This document shows, piece by piece, positions 7,096 through 63,069 of a stretch of 64,000 bases of DNA. The stretch is taken from NCBI GenBank assembly GCA_041658585.1, contig JBAZZX010000008.1:15365-79364 (forward strand), written 5' to 3'. Every line of letters starts with the position of its first letter. The stretch's first letter is position 1. The notes below the pieces were generated by a model. It searched no databases. It was not told the DNA's origin and worked only from the letters and a program-made list of their open reading frames with translations. Position numbers and translations under genes: made by a program. This DNA is from Thermodesulfovibrionales bacterium (GTDB lineage Bacteria > Nitrospirota > Thermodesulfovibrionia > Thermodesulfovibrionales > SM23-35).

Positions 7096-7908
7096 TTATT
7101 TTATACTCACATACTTTACTTCATTAACAATCTTCTGCCCGTCTTTAGAAAGCATGAAGTCAATGAATTTCGCTATAACGCCGGCAGGCTTTCCATTTGT
7201 GTACATAAACAGGGGTCTTGCAATAGGCCATGAACCGTCGCGCACCGTATTTGCAGAAGCTGATTTGCCGTTTACCGTAAGCGCTTTTACGCTTCTATCA
7301 ATATACCCGATGCCGATATACCCGATCGCAAATCTATTTTGTGAAACGGTCTGGACAGCCTGACCGTTTGAGGCAACGAGCAGTGCATCAGGTTTTACCT
7401 TGTCGCCCTTAAGGATCTTTTCTTCCCAGACCTCATAGGTGCCCGAGCTTGTATCTCTGGAAACCGTAGAGATAGGTCTGTTCGGACCGCCGAGATCTTT
7501 CCAGTTGTTGATCTTCCCGTTATAAATATCCCTGAGCTGTTCCGTGGTGATATCTTTGATCTTCATTGAGGGGTGTACAACCGGAACAATCCCGTCAAGG
7601 GCAACCTTATGGCCGGTGAGCGTAACCCCTTTCCCCTTTGCAGAGGCTACCTCTTTATCCTTTGCCTCACGGGAACTTGTTGCAATATTTGTCGTGCCGT
7701 CGATCAATGCCTTGATGCCGGTTCCCGAACCGCTTCCTGATACGAATACTTTTGCGGCGGGATTCTTTTTCATAAAGACCTCGGCGCCCTTCTGTGCAAT
7801 CGGCAGGACCGTTGTCGAACCGTCAATCCGAAGGTCCTCTGCATATGAGACCCCCATAATTGAACAGACAAATAAGACCGATAAAAATACCGTCATAATC
7901 TTTTTCAT
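7096..7908 (-). CDS. pstS: periplasmic phosphate-binding protein PstS
   Basis: Signal peptide MKKIMTVFLSVLFVCSIMGVSYA and a PBP fold with SGSGSGTG and SRDTSSGT phosphate-binding motifs. GGAGG RBS upstream; first gene of the pst operon. Confidence 0.9.
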   Translation of the reverse strand: MKKIMTVFLSVLFVCSIMGVSYAEDLRIDGSTTVLPIAQKGAEVFMKKNPAAKVFVSGSGSGTGIKALIDGTTNIATSSREAKDKEVASAKGKGVTLTGHKVALDGIVPVVHPSMKIKDITTEQLRDIYNGKINNWKDLGGPNRPISTVSRDTSSGTYEVWEEKILKGDKVKPDALLVASNGQAVQTVSQNRFAIGYIGIGYIDRSVKALTVNGKSASANTVRDGSWPIARPLFMYTNGKPAGVIAKFIDFMLSKDGQKIVNEVKYVSIK

Positions 7909-7926
7909 TACTTACCTCCCTTGGTT

Positions 7927-7985
7927 TTACAATACTACCGGATTATTACAATAATGTTACATTTCCGTTAAATTTATGTTACATA
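7927..7985 (-). promoter_or_regulatory. candidate PhoB-box array upstream of pstS
   Basis: On the plus strand, TTACA/TTACA/TTAAA/TTACA start at 7946, 7957, 7968 and 7979, exactly 11 bp apart. One more TTACA starts at 7927. The sense-strand reading is TGTAACA-N4-TTTAACG-N4-TGTAACA, i.e. 7-bp direct repeats with 4-bp spacers, the architecture known for Pho boxes. Confidence 0.6.
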
Positions 7986-8061
7986 CACCACCTCCCCGAC
8001 AAATATAAGAATCAAAATAAGGATAACAACAATCACTTCGCTATAATATAACCTTGTTTTG

Positions 8062-8483: not shown

Positions 8484-8903
8484 GTGTTGAAAGTCATGTT
8501 TTTATGCACCGGTAATTCATGCCGTTCACAGATGGCTGAAGGCTTTGCGCGGGAACTCGGCAAAGGTTTTATTGCGGCCTATAGCGCCGGGCTTAGTCCG
8601 CAGGGAGTTAATCCCAAAGCCGTAGCCGTAATGAAAGAGATCGGGATTGATATCTCTCAACAGCAATCTAAAGCTATTGACCCCGAACTGCTTGAAAAAA
8701 TGGATACGGTTATTACGCTCTGCGATAACGCTTCGGAATCCTGCCCGTGGACGCCACCTGCAATAAAACGCATTCACTGGTCGTTAAAAGACCCGGCTCA
8801 TGCAATGGGATCGGAAGAAGAAGTCTTGAACGAGTTCCGGAGGGTCAGGGATGAGATAAAAGAAAAAATAGTCAATTTTCTAAAGGAAATATCCAATAGC
8901 TGA
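8484..8903 (+). CDS. arsC: arsenate reductase, LMW-PTPase (thioredoxin-coupled) type
   Basis: N-terminal CX5R P-loop (VMFLCTGNSCRSQMAEG) plus downstream Cys residues (…ITLCDNASESCPW…). GTG start 5 nt after AGGAGG. Confidence 0.85.
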   Translation: MLKVMFLCTGNSCRSQMAEGFARELGKGFIAAYSAGLSPQGVNPKAVAVMKEIGIDISQQQSKAIDPELLEKMDTVITLCDNASESCPWTPPAIKRIHWSLKDPAHAMGSEEEVLNEFRRVRDEIKEKIVNFLKEISNS

Positions 8904-9107
8904 TAGCTTAGCCGCACACATTACATCTATGGACGATATAATCAGGAATTGTTAACGTGCGCCCTAATCAAAACGTTCGTATCAAATACGACAATTATGA
9001 TATCGCTTTGAACACATCTTCTTCACTGACGATTCCAAGCTTCTTTGCCTTTGGGCCGAGTTCTGCAATTCAGAAACAACGTCACTTAACATTACAAAAA
9101 TAATGAG

Positions 9108-10746: not shown

Positions 10747-10773
10747 AAAATGTCAATAGGCAAGTCTGACCCC
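10747..10773 (-). repeat. dispersed 26-bp motif, copy 1 (GGGGTCAGACTTGCCTATTGACATTTT on the minus strand)
   Basis: Matches 62703-62728 (GGGGTCAGGCTTGCCTATTGATATTT) and, more loosely, 44406-44431 and 47309-47331. Confidence 0.6.
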
Positions 10774-10787
10774 ATGTCCTCATGCCT

Positions 10788-10851
10788 ATGAGACCCCCAT
10801 AATTGAACAGACAAATAAGGCCGATAAAAATACCGTCATAATCTTTTTCGT
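10788..10851 (-). pseudogene. duplicated 5' fragment of pstS (signal-peptide region) with its start codon destroyed
   Basis: Near-identical to 7845-7908, matching from TATGAGACCCCCATAATTGAACAGACAAATAAG onward. The position equivalent to the ATG (CAT on plus) reads CGT here. Confidence 0.75.
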
Positions 10852-10869
10852 TACTAACCTCCTTTGGTT

Positions 10870-11010
10870 TTACAATACTCTTGAATTATTACAATAATGT
10901 TACATTCCCGTTAAATTTCTGTTACATGTATCACCCCCTAAATAACAATAATAAACACATCTATCTAATATAATCCGATATTGTTACGGCAATATTAAAG
11001 GAATGTTAAT
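10870..11010 (-). promoter_or_regulatory. duplicated pstS-type promoter with phased TTACA boxes
   Basis: TTACA/TTACA/TTAAA/TTACA start at 10889, 10900, 10911 and 10922 (11-bp phase). TTACG/TTAAA/TTAAT start at 10984, 10995 and 11006. The region is collinear with 7927-8090. Confidence 0.5.
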
Positions 11011-11094
11011 TCTTTGTAAAATTTGAACCGTTACAGGCAAACAATGATAAGATTTATGGATATTGCTCCGGGATAATGGTTAAATAGTTTTATA

Positions 11095-11192
11095 TCGGAA
11101 GAAGAAGTCATGAACGAGTTCCGGAGGGTCAGGGATGAGATAAAAGAAAAAATAGTCAATTTTCTAATGGAAATAGCCGATAGCTGATAGCT
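11095..11192 (+). pseudogene. duplicated 3' fragment of arsC
   Basis: About 90% identical to 8811-8908 (TCGGAAGAAGAAGTC.TGAACGAGTTCCGGAGGGTCAGGGATGAGATAAAAGAAAAAATAGTCAATTTTCTAA…GCTGATAGCT). It lacks the catalytic N-terminal two thirds of the gene. Confidence 0.8.
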
Positions 11193-13092: not shown

Positions 13093-13258
13093 AAACTGCA
13101 GATGTCTAAAATAAATATATTTAACTCGTCTACGACCCGTAGGATGATTTTATATAAAAAGATAGTTGATGGTAATTGCATAAAAATATTTTGGTAACAC
13201 ATCTATATAAGTACACTATTGTATCGAAAAATAAATTTATTTTAGACATCTGCAGTTT
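13093..13258. mobile_element. MITE-like element (166 bp) with perfect 24-bp terminal inverted repeats
   Basis: AAACTGCAGATGTCTAAAATAAAT at 13093-13116 and its exact reverse complement at 13235-13258 flank an AT-rich, non-coding core. A third copy of the terminus lies at 62966-62990. Confidence 0.6.
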
Positions 13259-13286
13259 CTCTTGCAGGTTAATTGCATTTTTAGGG

Positions 13287-15092
13287 TTAAGCTACTGGTA
13301 AGATAAGGAGTATTTTTGTGCCTGTGCCTTCACTGCTTTGGATCTCCATGTCCCAGCCATGCGCCTTTACAAGGTGTTTGACTATAGCCAGTCCGAGACC
13401 GGTCCCCCCGAGATCTCTTGAACGGGCCCTGTCAACCCTGTAAAACCGCTCGCCAAGACGGGATAGGTGTTTCTTCGGAATACCGATGCCGGTATCCTCA
13501 ACGGAAATTTCGATGAAGGATAAGGGATGAGGGATGAGGGACAAATCAGCCGTTTGTTTTGCATTCTGCATTTTGCATTCTGCATTCTGCATTCTTATTG
13601 TTACTCCTCCCTTGTCCGTATACTTTATCCCGTTGTCGACAAGGTTGATTAGTATCTGTATCAGACGGCCTCTGTCCGCGTTTATCCGTATGACTTCGGG
13701 AGATATCTCTTTTTTGAGATAGAGACCCTTGGCGTCGCTCTTGTCTTTCAGGGTTTCAAAAACGGTCTCCGTCACTTCATCGGGATTGACATCCGTCTTT
13801 TCAATCGTTATATCTCCAAGCTCTATCCTTGAGAGGGTGAGAAGATCATTGACAAGGGAGTTCAGGCGTTCGCTGTTGCTTTTAATTGTCTCAAGGAATT
13901 TGAAGGCACTCTCCCTGTCATCGAGGGCGCCTTCAAGGAGCGTTTCCGCAAAACCTTTTATTGCCGTGATGGGGGTCTTTATCTCGTGGGAGACATTTGC
14001 AACGAAATCTTTTCTTACCTCTTCAAGTTTTTTCAGTCTGGTGATATCATGAAACGTCAACACAACGCCGGATAATTCTTCGATGGTTTTATGAGAAGAG
14101 AAGGGTGAAGCGGTGACCATCAGGTGAAGCTCCCTCGGATGGTCGATCTCTATTTCACGGGATATTTTGTGACCGCCTTCGGCAACCATATCTATCAACT
14201 CCATAAGCTCGGCCTTCCGGAATGCCTCCATTAATGTTTTGCCGTCTATGCCCGATGATATGCCGAACAGTTTTGAAACGGCGTCATTACTCAGTATAAT
14301 CCTGCCCTTTGTATCGGTCAGTATCAGGCCGTCCGACATATTTTGGATAATCGCCGCTATCTTCTGTTTTTCATCTTCGCTCTGTTTCAGTTTTGTCTGC
14401 AGTTCATCCGCCATATCGATGATATTTTTGCCGAGCTGACCGAGTTCATCATTGTTTTTCAGAAACAATCTTTTTTTCAAATTCCCTTCCGCCACTTCTT
14501 TTGAAAATTCCGCGATCTCCTCGATAGATTTTGTGACCTTTCTTGTCTGGAAAAGTCCTGTAAGAAGCGCTATGAAAAGTATGGAAAGAGAAGCGATAAT
14601 CACCCTCATCCTGATCTCATTGACAGCCTGTTCAACCTCGTAGAGGGGCATTGACAGCCTCAGGAATCTTTTCGGGTCCGTATCGGTTGATATGGCAAGA
14701 TAAAACTGATTCCTGCTGAGAGTGCTGCTGAACCTTACAGAACTCCCTGTGCCGCTTATATCGGCTTCCTTAATCTCCGGCCTGTTTGCATGGTTCTCCA
14801 TGATATTAGCCGGCTCGTCGGAATCTCCCAAAACTTTTCCTGAATCGTCAATAACCGTTACCCTTGCTCCGGTCCGGTCCTTGAATTGTTTGCTGAAAGC
14901 GTCAAGGTTGTCTGAAAAAGAAAGAGGTATCTGATCCGCAATCAGGCGGGCCTGTATACCGAGGCTTTTCTTGAGGTTTGCAATATAGCTGTCCTTTACT
15001 TCGCGTGAGAGATAAAATTCAAGGGAAAGAAGCAGCAGAGGAGCGATAATAATATAAATCAGCACTATCCTTCTGAAAAGAATATGCTTCAT
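13287..15092 (-). CDS. phoR: phosphate regulon sensor histidine kinase PhoR
   Basis: TM/HAMP/PAS N-terminus, H-box VANVSHEIKTPITAIKGF, and HATPase N/G boxes (LINLVDNGIKYT, DTGIGI, GGTGLGLAIVKH). Overlaps phoB by 1 nt. Confidence 0.9.
   Translation of the reverse strand: MKHILFRRIVLIYIIIAPLLLLSLEFYLSREVKDSYIANLKKSLGIQARLIADQIPLSFSDNLDAFSKQFKDRTGARVTVIDDSGKVLGDSDEPANIMENHANRPEIKEADISGTGSSVRFSSTLSRNQFYLAISTDTDPKRFLRLSMPLYEVEQAVNEIRMRVIIASLSILFIALLTGLFQTRKVTKSIEEIAEFSKEVAEGNLKKRLFLKNNDELGQLGKNIIDMADELQTKLKQSEDEKQKIAAIIQNMSDGLILTDTKGRIILSNDAVSKLFGISSGIDGKTLMEAFRKAELMELIDMVAEGGHKISREIEIDHPRELHLMVTASPFSSHKTIEELSGVVLTFHDITRLKKLEEVRKDFVANVSHEIKTPITAIKGFAETLLEGALDDRESAFKFLETIKSNSERLNSLVNDLLTLSRIELGDITIEKTDVNPDEVTETVFETLKDKSDAKGLYLKKEISPEVIRINADRGRLIQILINLVDNGIKYTDKGGVTIRMQNAECKMQNAKQTADLSLIPHPLSFIEISVEDTGIGIPKKHLSRLGERFYRVDRARSRDLGGTGLGLAIVKHLVKAHGWDMEIQSSEGTGTKILLILPVA
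13512..13595 (-). repeat. 84-nt block of 12 phased heptanucleotides inside phoR, in frame
   Basis: Sense strand: (AGAATGC)x3 AAAATGC AGAATGC, then three non-repeat heptads, then CCTCATC CCTCATC CCTTATC CTTCATC. It encodes RMQNAECKMQNAKQTADLSLIPHPLSFI between the N-box region and the DTGIGI box. Confidence 0.85.
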
Positions 15093-16951: not shown

Positions 16952-17377
16952 TCAGGTCGCTTTTCTCCTTCTCTTTATGAAGAATTTTGTGATTACATAA
17001 GCTATGCCGGAAAATAGAATTCCAAGGACGATACTCCCCACAATGATCGGCCATAAATAATGAGAAAGCAGATTGATGTTTTTTGAGAACTTAATTTCCA
17101 GAAAGTGTCCTCTGAGCATGAGATTCCCGACCTCGGCGCAGATAAAGAGCTGAAAAGGGTAAGTAATGGGATTGGACACCTGGGTGCCGAGCAGTACTAC
17201 CAGCGGACTGAGCCGCAGGAGAGAAGCAAGCCCCAAAGCGATTATGGTGTGAGTGCCGAAGACCGGCACAAAAGCAACGAGTATTCCCACCGCCATCCCG
17301 ACTGCAATCTCATGGGGAGTCAGCCCTTTTTTGGTGAGGCTGATGATATAGGTTTTTAATTTTGCGAAATATTTCAT
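16952..17377 (-). CDS. DUF2062-like small membrane protein
   Basis: 141 aa. The pattern …GLTPHEIAVGMAVGILVAFVPVFGTHTIIALGLASLL… followed by further TM helices is typical of DUF2062. Confidence 0.65.
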   Translation of the reverse strand: MKYFAKLKTYIISLTKKGLTPHEIAVGMAVGILVAFVPVFGTHTIIALGLASLLRLSPLVVLLGTQVSNPITYPFQLFICAEVGNLMLRGHFLEIKFSKNINLLSHYLWPIIVGSIVLGILFSGIAYVITKFFIKRRRKAT

Positions 17378-17386
17378 AGTTAACTG

Positions 17387-17585
17387 ATCAGTTGCATAAC
17401 TTGAAAGGCAGACATGACAAAAAACCTTTTGAATGCGACAAAAATTAAACCATATTCACCTGACGGCACTTTCAACCAGAAGTGCATTATAGATGAATGC
17501 GTGCTGCCATGTGTGAATAGTACATTATGGAGTCGCCAAAAGCTTTTTCATCATGCCAGCCTTTCAAGTTCAGAATGTCTTTGCA
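17387..17585. repeat. ~200-bp hairpin (palindromic) element, copy 1
   Basis: About 90% identical and collinear with 30249-30448. It has ~40-bp imperfect terminal inverted repeats (ACTTGAAAGGCAGACATGAYAAAAAACCTTTTG…) and nested internal inverted repeats. It starts 9 nt from the DUF2062 gene start. Confidence 0.8.
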
Positions 17586-17706
17586 TCGGTTAGGTTAATA
17601 ATACCCAACTTCGGGAATAATTAGCCCGATTAGCTTATCAAAGGATATTTCAAGTCATAATACAAATAAACAGCCAACGGGATTTTCCGGCATCGCAAAA
17701 ACTCTT

Positions 17707-20401: not shown

Positions 20402-20457
20402 CTATAAGTTCTCCATCAGTTACATAAAACAACATCGCAAGAAGTCCTTTTCATGGC

Positions 20458-20542
20458 TGTCATTCCCGAAGTCTTTAATCGGGAATCCATTCTTTTCAAG
20501 AAGTTGCGCGCACCTGGATTCCCGCCTTCGCGGGAATGACAA
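20458..20542. repeat. REP-like double hairpin
   Basis: ATTCCCGA-N9-TCGGGAAT (20462-20486) and ATTCCCGC-CTTC-GCGGGAAT (20518-20537) are framed by GTCATTCCC…GGGAATGAC. ORF 20420-20614 is merely their translation (…SFPRRRESR…). Confidence 0.5.
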
Positions 20543-20596
20543 CTCAAAACACTCGAAACATATGTAAAGAAGCGTTGGACGCACTACAATAGATAT

Positions 20597-21668: not shown

Positions 21669-23504
21669 ATGATCAGTGATCTTAGATTGCATGGAAGCCT
21701 GGGTCCGATAGAGTTCTTTGCCCTAGTGGGGGGCACAGGCGCTTATAATACCTATTTCTATGAAGAAGGTCCCTGGGGGATCAGATTTTTTTCAAGGGGC
21801 AACGAGTTTACCATAACCGAGCAGGGTATCCATTATAAAGGCACGGGCGGAAGTTTCTGCGAATACATGTTCGGGGTGGAAAAGCCCTTCAAGGATTTAA
21901 TCAAAAAGTCGGTCGCCAACAGGCTTATTATGTTCGGCGCCTTCCTCGACGAAAAGGAAAAGGTAATCTTTACGAATAATACCGAGGGCAGAGAGTCTTT
22001 TTATCGTCTCTTCCTTCAGGGACATGCGGTAGAGAATTATTATTTTTTCATTTCTTCGGATTTTCAGGGAGACTGCACCAAGAGGCAAAAGCATATTTTA
22101 AAAGGGGTCGGCAAGTTCCTTAAGCGGACACATCTTCTCGCGGAAGACCAGGATACGGAACTCCTTGACGGGTTTTTTGCAGAATTAAAAGAAAAAAATT
22201 CCACTGTTTTTGTCTTTAAACTTGTGCATACCGGCAATAAAAAATTTTATAAAGGGCTGAAAGAGTTTTATTCCAAAGACCGTTTGCTGAGCATGAATGA
22301 AGAGCTCTATCTCGAGGATATCGTTGCCAGATATGATATAGACCGCTACCAGCTTGAGAGGATGAGGATAGATATCATGTCCCGGCATATCGACAACAAA
22401 AGCGTTGTCGATGAATACCGGGACATCCTTCTTGGAGGGATACTTAAAGATACGATGCAGCACTCGGAGTATGCCCGCCTCAACCGGCTGCGGACCCTCG
22501 GGATAAGAAATAACATACCCGACGTACTTTTCGAGACGCTCGATGAGCTGCTCCTGAAAGGCAGAAAGATACAGGAGATCGAAGAGCCGGAGCATCTCAG
22601 AGAGACAAGGGTGATTCTCCAGAGCCTGTTTTTCAAGGACCCGTCCCTGAAGAGGCATATTATCAATAACGAAGATATTATAAGGCTGGTAAAGGCAAAA
22701 AATGCCGCAGAGTTAAAGGGAGATAAAGGTTTTGAACAGATACTTCTTGATACGGTCCGGACCTGCGATGAGATTGTCCGTGAAACGAATGATTTCAGTT
22801 ACTTCGAGGAATTTACGTCGATAGCAACGTATTTTGACAGATATGACAATGTCGCAGCTTTGTTAAGTAAAACGGCATTCCTTGAGAATGTCGAGTTTAC
22901 CGAGGATTCTCTGCGAAGCCTTATCGGGAATAAAAAGGAGTTTGACGAACTGGACGCAGGGCTTTTTGATGATATTTTCATCAAGACACTCCTGAACAAC
23001 AAATATATCAGCGCTTATGGCAGAAAAAAGATTCAGGCCATATCCAGGGGGATTAAAAAGATTTCCGTAGGAGATGCGTCATTGCGGGAGGTTATTAAAG
23101 AGTTAAGGATAATAACCGAAGAAGAAAAGCTTTACCGCAAGGTGCATACGGCCCTGAAAGAGCGTATGCGCAGCTTCTTCCCCGGCCTTGATACAAAAAG
23201 AGGGCGTGACAAGATACGGGAGGATATTGCGCGCGAGATTTCCGAAAAAGGGTTTGCCGGCGAGGTGACAAAGAGATTATTTGAAAAGGTTTTTCTTGAT
23301 CTCAGAAAAGAGTCTTTCTATCTGAACCACCTTTTGCCGCTAATCATACAGAATAAAGATGTTTTATTAAGGGAAGATTTCCTGAATAACAGCGGCCTTG
23401 ACAGGTTTTATATCGAAACTCTGGAAAAGGAATATTTTGAGCAAAGAAAGCTGGATCCGTCTTTGCTTGAACATCTGCTTGTTGGAGGCGGCGAGCGGAT
23501 TTGA
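21669..23504 (+). CDS. large hypothetical protein (611 aa), mostly helical, no NTPase motif seen
   Basis: Long uninterrupted ORF with no Walker A and no recognised catalytic motif. Its last 22 nt overlap tRNA-Cys on the opposite strand. Confidence 0.65.
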   Translation: MISDLRLHGSLGPIEFFALVGGTGAYNTYFYEEGPWGIRFFSRGNEFTITEQGIHYKGTGGSFCEYMFGVEKPFKDLIKKSVANRLIMFGAFLDEKEKVIFTNNTEGRESFYRLFLQGHAVENYYFFISSDFQGDCTKRQKHILKGVGKFLKRTHLLAEDQDTELLDGFFAELKEKNSTVFVFKLVHTGNKKFYKGLKEFYSKDRLLSMNEELYLEDIVARYDIDRYQLERMRIDIMSRHIDNKSVVDEYRDILLGGILKDTMQHSEYARLNRLRTLGIRNNIPDVLFETLDELLLKGRKIQEIEEPEHLRETRVILQSLFFKDPSLKRHIINNEDIIRLVKAKNAAELKGDKGFEQILLDTVRTCDEIVRETNDFSYFEEFTSIATYFDRYDNVAALLSKTAFLENVEFTEDSLRSLIGNKKEFDELDAGLFDDIFIKTLLNNKYISAYGRKKIQAISRGIKKISVGDASLREVIKELRIITEEEKLYRKVHTALKERMRSFFPGLDTKRGRDKIREDIAREISEKGFAGEVTKRLFEKVFLDLRKESFYLNHLLPLIIQNKDVLLREDFLNNSGLDRFYIETLEKEYFEQRKLDPSLLEHLLVGGGERI

Positions 23505-23557
23505 ACCGCTGCATAAAGGTTTTGCAGACCTCTCCCTTGCCACTTGGGTACGCCGCC
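23483..23557 (-). tRNA. tRNA-Cys (GCA)
   Basis: The reverse complement folds as a cloverleaf: acceptor GGCGGCG/CGCCGCC, anticodon stem GAGGT/ACCTT with loop CTGCAAA, T-arm AGCGG-TTCAAAT-CCGCT, encoded CCA. Confidence 0.88.
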
Positions 23558-23639: not shown

Positions 23640-23715
23640 TGGAGCGGGAAACGGGACTCGAACCCGCGACCCCAACCTTGGCAAGGTTGTGCTCTACCAA
23701 CTGAGCTATTCCCGC
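23640..23715 (-). tRNA. tRNA-Gly (GCC)
   Basis: The reverse complement reads GCGGGAATAGCTCAGTTGGTAGAGCACAACCTTGCCAAGGTTGGGGTCGCGGGTTCGAGTCCCGTTTCCCGCTCCA. It is a canonical cloverleaf with anticodon loop TTGCCAA. Confidence 0.95.
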
Positions 23716-30238: not shown

Positions 30239-30248
30239 ACCTAAACGT

Positions 30249-30448
30249 TGCAAAAGACATTCTAAACTTGAAAGGCAGACATGATAAAAAACCTTTTGAA
30301 TGCGACAAAAAATTAGCCATATTCACCTGAAGGCACTTTTAACCTAAAGTGCATTTTAGATGAATGCGTGCTGCCATGTGTAAATAGTACATTATGGAGT
30401 CGCCAAAAACTTTTTCATCATGTCTACCTTTCAAGTTATGCAACTGAT
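30249..30448. repeat. ~200-bp hairpin (palindromic) element, copy 2
   Basis: The core is collinear with 17387-17585, but the outermost 12-16 bp are swapped and reverse-complemented relative to copy 1. It ends 19 nt before the waaA ATG. Confidence 0.8.
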
Positions 30449-30467
30449 GAGGTAATACTCTATAAAA

Positions 30468-31751
30468 ATGTATTTCATATATAGCCTCATATATATTATC
30501 GTAATCATCATTCTTTTGCCTTTTGAATATCTCAAAAGACCGGCGGAGATTAGAAGAAAATGGCTTAGAGATAAGTTCGGTCTTTTAGATGCATCCTTCA
30601 TCCTTAACCCCTCATCCGTTGTTTGGGTCCACGCCGTATCAGTCGGCGAGGTTATGGCCGCATCACCGCTTTTAAAAAAATTAAGAGAACGCTATCCGGG
30701 AAAAAGGATAATCCTTTCCACTATAACCGACACCGGGCAAAAAGTTGCAAGAGAAAGAGCGCCCGAAGGAACAGCCGTTGTTTATCTTCCCTTTGATATC
30801 CCTTTCATATTGAACAATGTTTTGAACAGGGTAAAACCCGACCTGCTGATCGTCATTGAAACCGAACTCTGGCCCAACCTGATAAGGGGTTTCAATGAGA
30901 AAGGAATACCCGTACTGCTGCTCAATGGAAGGATATCCGAAAAATCATTTAAAGGTTATAAAAAGGTATCACGCTTTATGAAAAAAGTCCTTTCCCATGT
31001 AGATTTCTTCGGTATGCAGAGTGAGGAATACGCAGACAGGATCAGGCAATTGGGAGTTGATGCCCGCAGAGTTGTGACATTAGGCAATTTCAAATTTGAT
31101 ACCATACCTCCTTCAGAACTCCCGCTATGGACAAAGGAATTGCAGGGTCCGGTTATTGTTGCAGGCAGCACCTTTGAAGGTGAGGAAGAACTGATGACCG
31201 ATGTTTATCTTAAGCTTAGGGAAGACTTCCCTGATATCAATCTGATCATCGCCCCACGCCATCCCGAGAGGTTTAAACCCGTTGAAGAAATGCTCAAATC
31301 AAAAGGGGTCTCATTTGTAAAACGTTCCGGAATTGATAGCTTAAAGTCGCAGAACGTTGAACGCAGAACGTTGAACGGTTTTATCGTCCTTCTCGACACA
31401 GTCGGCGAACTGTCATCCGTTTACGGCATATCGGACATCGCCGTTATCGGAAAGAGTTTCAGAGGCCGTGGAGGCCAGAATCCCCTCGAACCCGCCTACT
31501 GGGGCAAGCCCATCATATGCGGCCCGCATATGGAGAATTTTCCGATTATCGGGGAGTTTTACAAAGAAGGCGCTGCTATCCGGGTCGGAGAAGAAGACCT
31601 CCTCACAAAATTAAAAGACCTCCTCCTTTCACCCGAAAAGTCAAAAGCAATCGGCTCAAAGGCACGGATGCTATACAATAAAAACGCCGGAGCAGTTGAA
31701 AAGGCGATGGAGATTATTGAAAGGCGAATTTCTAAAACGGATTATTCATAA
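30468..31751 (+). CDS. waaA: 3-deoxy-D-manno-octulosonic acid (Kdo) transferase
   Basis: 427 aa with …VWVHAVSVGEV…, …ETELWPN…, …DTVGEL… and …GGQNPLEPA…, the WaaA/KdtA hallmarks. Confidence 0.9.
   Translation: MYFIYSLIYIIVIIILLPFEYLKRPAEIRRKWLRDKFGLLDASFILNPSSVVWVHAVSVGEVMAASPLLKKLRERYPGKRIILSTITDTGQKVARERAPEGTAVVYLPFDIPFILNNVLNRVKPDLLIVIETELWPNLIRGFNEKGIPVLLLNGRISEKSFKGYKKVSRFMKKVLSHVDFFGMQSEEYADRIRQLGVDARRVVTLGNFKFDTIPPSELPLWTKELQGPVIVAGSTFEGEEELMTDVYLKLREDFPDINLIIAPRHPERFKPVEEMLKSKGVSFVKRSGIDSLKSQNVERRTLNGFIVLLDTVGELSSVYGISDIAVIGKSFRGRGGQNPLEPAYWGKPIICGPHMENFPIIGEFYKEGAAIRVGEEDLLTKLKDLLLSPEKSKAIGSKARMLYNKNAGAVEKAMEIIERRISKTDYS
31349..31376 (+). repeat. tandem GCAGAAC GTTGAAC x2 (four phased heptamers) inside waaA
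   Basis: Perfect 14-nt duplication GCAGAACGTTGAAC GCAGAACGTTGAAC, encoding …SQNVERRTLN… just before the DTVGEL motif. Confidence 0.8.
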
Positions 31752-41827: not shown

Positions 41828-42032
41828 TATTTAACCTGGATTATTTATAAAATTGGCAATGGCAACCGAGGATAGAGTATTTGCGCGGTTTTTTTTGCCG
41901 ATAGTCAAATACAGTATTTGAAAATAGAGAGGCAAAAGCCTCGCAGGGAGGAACGACCGAGAATGAGCGCAAATACCCTATCCTCGGTTCAATCAGAAAT
42001 ATTTGTGAATAATCCTGGGTAAGTTATTTAAC
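41828..42032. mobile_element. MITE-like nested inverted-repeat element
   Basis: Inner IR AACCGAGGATAGAGTATTTGCGC (41864-41886) matches rc of 41967-41989 at 22/23. Outer IR CCTGGATTATTTATAAA pairs with TTTGTGAATAATCCTGG. The direct repeat TATTTAACC occurs at 41828-41836 and 42024-42032. No ORF. Confidence 0.45.
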
Positions 42033-44249: not shown

Positions 44250-44405
44250 GTAAAGCCCTTATCCATTTCCAGTTGCTATGCACAGATTATAACAAAAGTT
44301 AGAGTTCTCAACAACAGGAAGGAGGCTTGCTTTCTTGGCCTCTCTGGAATATCGTGAGTCTTTCGCCCTGTAAGACGCATGTTATTTCTATCATGCGGGG
44401 GACTC

Positions 44406-44431
44406 GGGGTCAGACTTGTTTATTGACTTTT
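44406..44431 (+). repeat. dispersed 26-bp motif, copy 2 (GGGGTCAGACTTGTTTATTGACTTTT)
   Basis: Shares AGACTTGTTTATTG exactly with 47311-47324, in direct orientation. Related to 10747-10773 (rc) and 62703-62728. Confidence 0.6.
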
Positions 44432-47882: not shown

Positions 47883-47980
47883 GGGAGTGTATAGGGTTCC
47901 GGTGTCCCTCTTGGACTTCAAATCCAATGTTGCCTGTTACAAACGGGCAGGGTGGGTTCGATTCCCACACACTCCCGCCA
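47883..47980 (+). tRNA. selC: tRNA-Sec (UCA), selenocysteine tRNA
   Basis: 98 nt. It has an 8-bp acceptor stem GGGAGTGT/ACACTCCC, anticodon stem TTGGA/TCCAA with loop CTTCAAA (anticodon TCA), a long variable arm TGTTGCCTGTTACAAACGGGCAGG, T-arm GTGGG-TTCGATT-CCCAC and an encoded GCCA end. Confidence 0.9.
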
Positions 47981-62427: not shown

Positions 62428-62702
62428 TGACAGCCTCCTTTTTTAAGTAAAAAATCTCTGCTTTATTATGCTATTCCGGAATGCCTGCTAATACAATTAT
62501 TTCTTTACTATTGCGCTAAAAACTTTTTCCTTATCGATTTTTTCAGGACCTCCTTTAAATTTATTGTTTAATGCTGCACCGTTACTAACGAACTCCACTT
62601 TTTCAATTTTACCACCTTTTCTTTAAAACTTATAGGCCTAATGCCGTTTTGATTTTGTTTTCATGAGATCCAACGATAACTTTATCGCCGATAACAGGTC
62701 AT

Positions 62703-62728
62703 GGGGTCAGGCTTGCCTATTGATATTT
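62703..62728 (+). repeat. dispersed 26-bp motif, copy 4 (GGGGTCAGGCTTGCCTATTGATATTT)
   Basis: Closest to the reverse complement of 10747-10773. It lies just 3' of the truncated transposase fragment. Confidence 0.6.
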
Positions 62729-62965: not shown

Positions 62966-62990
62966 TTTATTTTAGACATCCGCAGTTTCT
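62966..62990. repeat. solo copy of the MITE terminal repeat
   Basis: TTTATTTTAGACATCCGCAGTTTCT compared with the terminus at 13235-13258 (ATTTATTTTAGACATCTGCAGTTT). It directly abuts the truncation point of the transposase fragment. Confidence 0.6.
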
Positions 62991-63069
62991 CCGACAGTTT
63001 AAATGTATTTTTCGGGGCAACATACCCCGGTGTTTTTTTATTCAATTTTTTGAGTATAATCTTTCTGTT

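Follow-up and report, generated by a model that had tools for sequence, protein, structure and literature searches.

The two hairpin elements in the window, by which we mean the whole 64-kb stretch of DNA that was analysed, are in all likelihood copies of a ~212-bp non-autonomous MITE, and the reversed core that sets one apart from the other is likely to be a slow, passive by-product of the element's own inverted repeats and not a switch. Each copy comprises an A terminus, a core and a B terminus, which form one unit whose core is occasionally reversed. The whole A-core-B unit is mobile, and the core inverts in place, including within one insertion compared across strains. Copy 1 inserted recently, beside the start of a DUF2062 gene; the insertion of copy 2, between lpxB and waaA, is older and became fixed with its core flipped. 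The family to which they belong is multi-copy in uncultured Thermodesulfovibrionales-like (Nitrospirota) genomes.

Coordinates of the parts of both copies are collected in Table 1. Between the termini lies an internal quasi-palindrome of 173 nt with arms of 34–42 nt, the outer ~21 nt of which are nearly perfect. Folded as a DNA hairpin, copy 1 reaches −35.6 kcal/mol (z = −4.65 against shuffled controls) and copy 2 −46.6 kcal/mol (z = −8.8). An initial sequence-only reading had described two collinear cores of ~170 bp and ~90% identity, bounded by imperfect inverted repeats and inverted relative to the outer ends, and this geometry was borne out. The cores (17398-17570 and 30265-30437) form a direct repeat that is collinear over 173 nt at 92% identity, and both are bounded by 34-nt imperfect inverted repeats (85%). 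The ends match as reverse complements (17380-17431 with 30404-30455, 52 nt, 87%; 17537-17582 with 30253-30298, 46 nt, 89%), and these matches, with the core profile given below, confirm the inversion of the centre. The conserved ends are swapped and reverse-complemented between the copies, as that reading held, but the length of 12–16 bp assigned to them did not stand: the A end has 14 nt (consensus CTsATCAGTTGCAT) and the B end 24–25 nt (consensus yAGAATGTCTTTTGCAaCGkTTAGG). It had also placed the elements 9–19 nt from gene starts; they do lie close to gene starts, but with the true boundaries the distances become 6 nt for DUF2062 and 16 nt for waaA. The edge of copy 1 is measured from the DUF2062 ATG (17375-17377, minus strand), the insertion itself lying 2 nt upstream of the start, and copy 2 lies 1 nt past the lpxB stop and ahead of the waaA ATG at 30468. 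Copy 2 has no clean target-site duplication, with TAAA on one side and GTAA on the other.

Table 1. Features of the two element copies, in positions of the window.
Feature	Position	Strand	Description
MITE copy 1	17384..17594	+	211 bp; usual order A terminus-core (alpha to beta)-B terminus; boundaries based on alignment to ~37 copies and on the empty site in L057, which lacks precisely 17384-17594 plus one TTAA
Target-site duplication TTAA, left, copy 1	17380..17383	.	Empty site has one TTAA
Target-site duplication TTAA, right, copy 1	17595..17598	.	Empty site has one TTAA
A terminus, copy 1	17384..17397	+	CTGATCAGTTGCAT; kept at one end in every copy and in the second subfamily with a different interior
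Left (alpha) arm of internal inverted repeat, copy 1	17398..17431	+	34 nt, 85% complementary to 17537-17570
Right (beta) arm of internal inverted repeat, copy 1	17537..17570	+	Pairs with 17398-17431
B terminus, copy 1	17571..17594	+	CAGAATGTCTTTGCATCGGTTAGG; from alignment of copies
MITE copy 2	30240..30451	-	212 bp; termini run A to B on the minus strand, core reversed relative to termini (flipped)
B terminus, copy 2	30240..30264	-	Plus-strand reverse complement CCTAAACGTTGCAAAAGACATTCTA
Core of copy 2 (inverted segment)	30265..30437	+	Includes arms 30265-30298 and 30404-30437
A terminus, copy 2	30438..30451	-	Plus strand ATGCAACTGATGAG; 16 nt upstream of waaA ATG

Related copies, ~40 in all, were recovered from metagenomes and one Thermodesulfovibrionales MAG, and the A and B ends are present in every one of them. 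Alignment of their ends gives a unit, 212 bp in its modal length, that starts with CTCATCAGTTGCAT and finishes with TTTTGCAACGTTTAGG; as a parent IS would carry them, the MITE ends read CTCATCAGTTGCA...TGCAACGTTTAGG. An inverted-repeat scan of one genome per species located at least 6–7 copies in MAG JBAZWR01, where A always adjoins alpha and B always adjoins beta, as in window copy 1. The metagenome scan used a pattern built from the asymmetric interior alone and was therefore blind to the flanks, and the 30 true loci that it returned all have both A and B ends. Overall there are ~31 distinct loci, with six copies on contigs of sample Ga0265292 and two in the window. Most copies are flanked by a 4-bp AT-rich direct repeat, typically TAAA, TTAA, ATAA, TTAT, ATGA or TATA, and the best flanking direct repeat averages 3.38 nt against 2.54 ± 0.15 for shuffled left/right pairings (500 shuffles, maximum 3.0). 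No ORF of ≥80 aa lies inside the element, nor could one do so at a size of 211–212 bp. The outermost ends are alike at ~8 of 13 positions (C..A...GTTGCA), forming a weak terminal inverted repeat, and it is in the interior that the long inverted repeats lie. A second, diverged subfamily (L018 2860-3140; L040 600-900) has both termini in common with the first and a different outer stem, which supports the A and B ends being what the transposition machinery recognises. Size, lack of an ORF, copy number, target-site duplication and precise empty sites are those of a MITE.

Searches for relatives of the element were negative within their respective scopes: no autonomous IS that could be the parent, with matching termini, turned up in ~375 kb of related DNA, Rfam gave no match at gathering threshold (and at E ≤ 1 one chance plant-miRNA match of 17 bits), BLAST against PLSDB plasmids returned no match, and we found no MITE described for a Thermodesulfovibrionales-like lineage in the literature. 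With respect to their surroundings, about two-thirds of copies run from A to B in the direction of both neighbouring genes, the upstream gene of these co-directional copies stopping at the A end and the downstream gene starting a few nt past the B end. Both window copies are oriented opposite to this common arrangement relative to their neighbours.

The interior of the element is variable among copies. A perfect palindrome, TCCCGAAAGCTTTCGGGA, stands in place of part of the beta arm in L005 and L020 and of the alpha arm in L034 and L038, and resembles a nested insertion of a mini-hairpin; hairpins of a similar TTCCCG...CGGGAA type are present elsewhere between genes, among them in L054 and in the window at ~20460. 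A 30-nt insert (TCCGCACTCAGGCGGATTCGCCGAGGAGAAC), itself a small hairpin, adjoins the beta arm in L005, L009, L013, L014 and L038, resulting in variants of 242–252 bp, and a mini variant at L004 1017-1120 has lost its entire interior. One MAG copy (L009 3663-3695) carries its A terminus as a tandem duplicate (ACTCGTCAGTCGCATAA + ACTCACCGGTTGCCTAA). When window 30299-30403 is set against L026 (95.4% identical), the central ~45 nt of the copy 2 core differs at ~9 positions (~20%), far above the flanks, a contrast suggestive of local hypermutability or of gene conversion with other copies as donors.

Further repeats are scattered through the window. At 20405-20560, sequence resembling the A terminus (TCCATCAGTTACATAA, 20412) precedes two ATTCCCG...CGGGAAT hairpins, which stand where the usual core would be; a third element, related or chimeric, is a possibility. 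Another MITE-like element of ~185 bp, whose terminal inverted repeats are CCTGGATTATTTATAAAAT / ATATTTGTGAATAATCCTGGG, occupies 41835-42019, an intergenic spot at which L030 and L039 have the MITE studied here, and copies of it abut the studied MITE in L040 and L033. A 32–33-nt repeat, AAATGTCAATAGGCAAGTCTGACCCCATGTCC, recurs at 10748-10780, 44400-44431 and 62696-62728 in two orientations with 84–91% identity. Positions 13093-13122 and 13229-13258 form a 30-nt inverted repeat (97%) with arms 106 nt apart, and one arm and flank of this 13093-13295 region appear again at 62966-63025 (60 nt, 80%), possibly representing a further hairpin repeat family. Direct repeats at 7840-8014 and 10783-10957 (175 nt, 87%) and at 8810-8908 and 11094-11192 (99 nt, 96%), 2.3–2.9 kb apart, suggest a local segmental duplication or paralogous genes. 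The window also carries tRNA genes at 23486-23557 and 23643-23715 and a tRNA-Sec gene at 47883-47976 (73 bits), from which it follows that the organism uses selenocysteine.

Mobility of the element is recorded at empty sites. Related sequence L057, 97.0% identical to the window over 2.27 kb, is without copy 1 and has a single TTAA, reading ...gggtatcaTTAActATG, where the window reads ...gggtattaTTAA, the 211 bp of the element and TTAActATG. At an insertion that L019, L029 and L032 carry between copies of TAAA (...tgTAAA, 212 bp, TAAAatgc...), L010 and L022 are empty with a single TAAA, reading ...cattgTAAAatgc... Given two clean empty sites, the 'conserved flanks' of the hairpin are the mobile element's own termini and no genomic target. 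The waaA locus is likewise free of the element in relatives L054, L055 and L056; at this spot L054 and L055 hold unrelated repeat-rich sequence, and the lpxB-waaA spacer has thus been remodelled.

The insertion shared by L019, L029 and L032, which come from three metagenomes, also captures the inversion. It is one orthologous insertion, with a common site, TAAA target-site duplication and A/B orientation, and with flanks ~96% identical over 400 nt on each side, and its core is in the usual orientation in L019 and L029 and reverse-complemented in L032. Core orientation calls are unambiguous, since against the core profile the forward orientation scores ~190 bits and the reverse ~55 bits. Flipped cores were found at 4 of the ~31 loci, namely window copy 2 (with its orthologues L026 and L053), L018, L032 and one of three L046 copies, and the diverged subfamily likewise has an interior that is homologous to a flipped core. 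Inner features specific to each arm (ATAAAAAACC...AATGCGAC vs ATGAAAAAGC...GGCGAC) travel together with the core, which places the exchange in the near-perfect repeats formed by the outermost ~21 bp of each arm (AACTTGAAAGGCAGrCATGAT). Inversion looks slow, on a scale of a few percent sequence divergence, and is probably neutral, or regulatory only incidentally.

The arms of a copy resemble each other more closely than those of different copies. Mismatches between arms average 1.92 of 21 positions within a copy, against 3.38 when arms are exchanged at random among copies, none of 2000 permutations reaching so low a value, and in the orthologous trio L019/L029/L032 substitutions are matched on both arms (GGC/GGC, GAC/GAC, GGT/GGT). 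Stem pairs covary, one pair, for example, being G-C in 13 copies and A-T in 15. When one fixed G-T pair is left out, stem mismatches comprise 25 G-T and 27 A-C, a balance that favours neither RNA strand, and the pattern points to an interaction of the two arms at the DNA level. We infer that the flip would arise through occasional recombination between the element's own two arms, with no dedicated invertase, for which RecA-type exchange, cruciform resolution and replication template switching are candidate routes. Arm-to-arm exchange of this kind would homogenise the arms if non-reciprocal and invert the core if reciprocal, and such interaction would keep the arms complementary. Counting against a passive origin, both the maintained complementarity of the arms and the gene-orientation bias of the copies could reflect selection for function.

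A rival reading makes the element a programmed inverton, in which a trans-acting site-specific recombinase encoded elsewhere would flip the core at its inverted repeats and so aim an internal promoter or RNA element at or away from DUF2062 and waaA, with phase variation at many MITE-seeded loci. We regard this as unlikely. It would accommodate the occurrence of both core orientations, even at one orthologous insertion, the complementary arms, the adjoining gene starts and the weak sigma-70-like matches on one core strand (ATGAAA-16-CATAAT; TACACA-18-TAAAAT), and Correia elements are reported, in a review (PMC10969869), to invert and to bear promoters. However, no gene of a recombinase, invertase or transposase family (including Phage_integrase and Resolvase) was found among those of the 64-kb window, which is where the nearby invertase that the sequence-only reading had suggested looking for was sought. 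The orientation at waaA is, moreover, constant in five assemblies and in relatives ~5% diverged. An identical flipped state at lpxB-waaA was recovered in the NCBI MAG, ENA ERZ27247322, ENA ERZ27247688, the JGI metagenome Ga0075359 (95.4% identity across 6.5 kb) and two Logan assemblies, and it is the state of L001, L026, L053 and the Logan contigs L002, L003 and L016. Every assembly of each window locus has one orientation, assemblies displaying the majority orientation only, such that low-frequency switching within a population would not show. Three of these Logan contigs end inside the element, the first base of L002 and of L003 lying exactly 30 nt into the beta arm and the last of L016 36 nt into the alpha arm. 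Logan assemblies use k=31, and we rejected these ends as a sign of mixed orientations: breaks are expected of k=31 graphs at multi-copy repeats, L041 has an identical beta arm beside a B end (shared 30-mers), and the lpxB contig continues past the point where a flipped minority would branch. The TATAAT of copy 1 and TAAAAT of copy 2, read earlier as promoter elements, are present, but only as weak promoter-like matches. Matches reach only 9 of 12 positions, and at that level the copy 1 region has 1 against 1.3 expected from shuffles, and hence no more than chance, and the copy 2 region 5 against 1.6. Candidate promoters in copy 2 face away from waaA, as had been predicted, and inspection of the termini by hand revealed no convincing sigma-54 boxes nor a well-spaced −35/−10 pair. 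Core orientation had no significant relation to gene direction, with flipped cores at 3 of 8 loci not co-oriented with their neighbours and 1 of 14 co-oriented (p = 0.12). Of the first explanation advanced by the sequence-only reading, core inversion is supported as an event, seen in both orientations of an orthologous insertion, but the phase-variable promoter or UTR is not supported, given the lack of a recombinase in the window, the constant lpxB-waaA orientation and the weak promoter matches. A looser version, a 'mobile inverton' by which the MITE spreads an invertible hairpin module in Thermodesulfovibrionales genomes and a distant recombinase flips the module at low frequency, strikes us as quite improbable; were it true, insertions beside lpxB/waaA (LPS genes) or the DUF2062 gene would become phase-variable. 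Nothing found requires a programmed fast switch.

Three further readings were weighed. Conservation of the sequence for a role in RNA, with the hairpin acting inside operons as a stability or RNase III signal, or else as an sRNA, and with the flip being incidental, would suit the very stable fold, the covarying stem pairs and the position of most copies between co-directional genes, with which they would be co-transcribed. It is a poor candidate, and we give it very little weight: G-U and A-C mismatches show no strand preference, there is no Rfam family match, presence or absence differs between 97%-identical genomes, and both orientations are tolerated. The second explanation of the sequence-only reading, site-specific insertion of a MITE into a conserved 28-bp target, was right that a MITE is involved, but the target did not hold, as the target-site duplication encloses the ends and empty sites do not have them. 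Restated as a nested insertion, the idea would have the 173-nt hairpin be a MITE in its own right, entering a conserved 39-bp sequence either way round. Long terminal inverted repeats on the hairpin would agree with this, and the mini version in L004, together with variants bearing other nested palindromes, implies that the interior is modular. Yet a search of ~375 kb of related DNA found no hairpin-less A+B, the empty target that such a model calls for; the hairpin/terminus junctions have no duplication, empty sites are without A, core and B all together, and L019, L029 and L032 differ in core orientation alone, which would require precise excision and reinsertion. Nested insertion is accordingly a highly improbable account, and one already largely refuted. 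Least credible of all is an assembly artefact, with the repeat joined the wrong way round at one locus. Although 34-nt inverted and multi-copy repeats break short-read graphs, and Logan contigs do stop inside the element, the junctions B'-alpha and beta-A' were recovered independently in different samples and by different assemblers, Logan contigs hold arm-specific bases across both junctions, and arms of 34 nt are shorter than a typical read.

With both loci read as copies of a non-autonomous MITE whose core flips passively, the finding, as it stands, is ordinary mobile-element biology. It defines a recently active MITE family in uncultured, environmentally widespread Thermodesulfovibrionales-like Nitrospirota, and provides a natural series at single loci from empty site to insertion to core flip. 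Effects on expression are plausible, since insertions lie 2–16 nt from the start codons of envelope-related genes. The family also offers a caution for inverton-finding pipelines, in that repeat-bounded segments internal to a MITE can differ in orientation between strains with no sign of a programmed switch.

Several known systems share parts of this behaviour. ERIC/IRU, RUP, BOX and REPIN sequences are likewise imperfect palindromes, intergenic, often co-transcribed and with a modular interior subject to insertions and deletions, but their sequences and host taxa are others, and REPINs are moved by RAYT without target-site duplication, whereas the element described here duplicates 4 bp. With invertons such as fimS, hin and the Mpi-controlled promoters of Bacteroides it has in common a segment bounded by inverted repeats, found in two orientations beside genes, and the invertons of Bacteroides occupy many loci with the same inverted repeats, as does the element family. 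In contrast, for invertons a site-specific recombinase has been assigned, a promoter demonstrated and both orientations found in one culture, whereas the element has both orientations between strains and no recombinase in the window.

Like the Correia elements (CREE/NEMIS) of Neisseria, the element is small (212 bp, against 100–160 bp), ORF-less, multi-copy and intergenic near gene starts, has long inverted repeats that fold as a hairpin, and is polymorphic for presence or absence between strains. Correia elements have TA as their target-site duplication. The duplication here is instead 4 bp and AT-rich, the host phylum differs, the two are presumably unrelated in sequence, and the hairpin that inverts sits within transposition termini that are separate from it and asymmetric, which makes the flip visible against the ends of the element itself. 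Correia elements also have promoter activity, bind IHF and are processed by RNase III, traits that in the present element would be conjecture. It is not a member of the Correia family, a separation drawn from target-site duplication and Nitrospirota-type host. Correia elements are likewise hairpin MITEs for which inversion in place and promoters have been reported and a part in phase variation proposed (PMC10969869, citing Elbeyioglu 2017 and Siddique 2011), and they are the nearest precedent for the flip seen here. After those of Neisseria, the family described here would be the second case, from a phylogenetically remote host, of a hairpin MITE inverting in place, which suggests that long quasi-palindromic repeats are generally prone to such inversion. 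In plastid DNA, hairpin-associated small inversions flip the segment between two repeats recurrently and independently, without a dedicated recombinase (PMC12371153). As in the element, this segment lies between short inverted repeats and the stems stay complementary; unlike the element, plastid inversions are organellar, lie outside mobile elements and usually have loops that measure from a few bp up to some tens. From these likenesses we infer that the flip of the element and the plastid small inversions may be parallel in mechanism.
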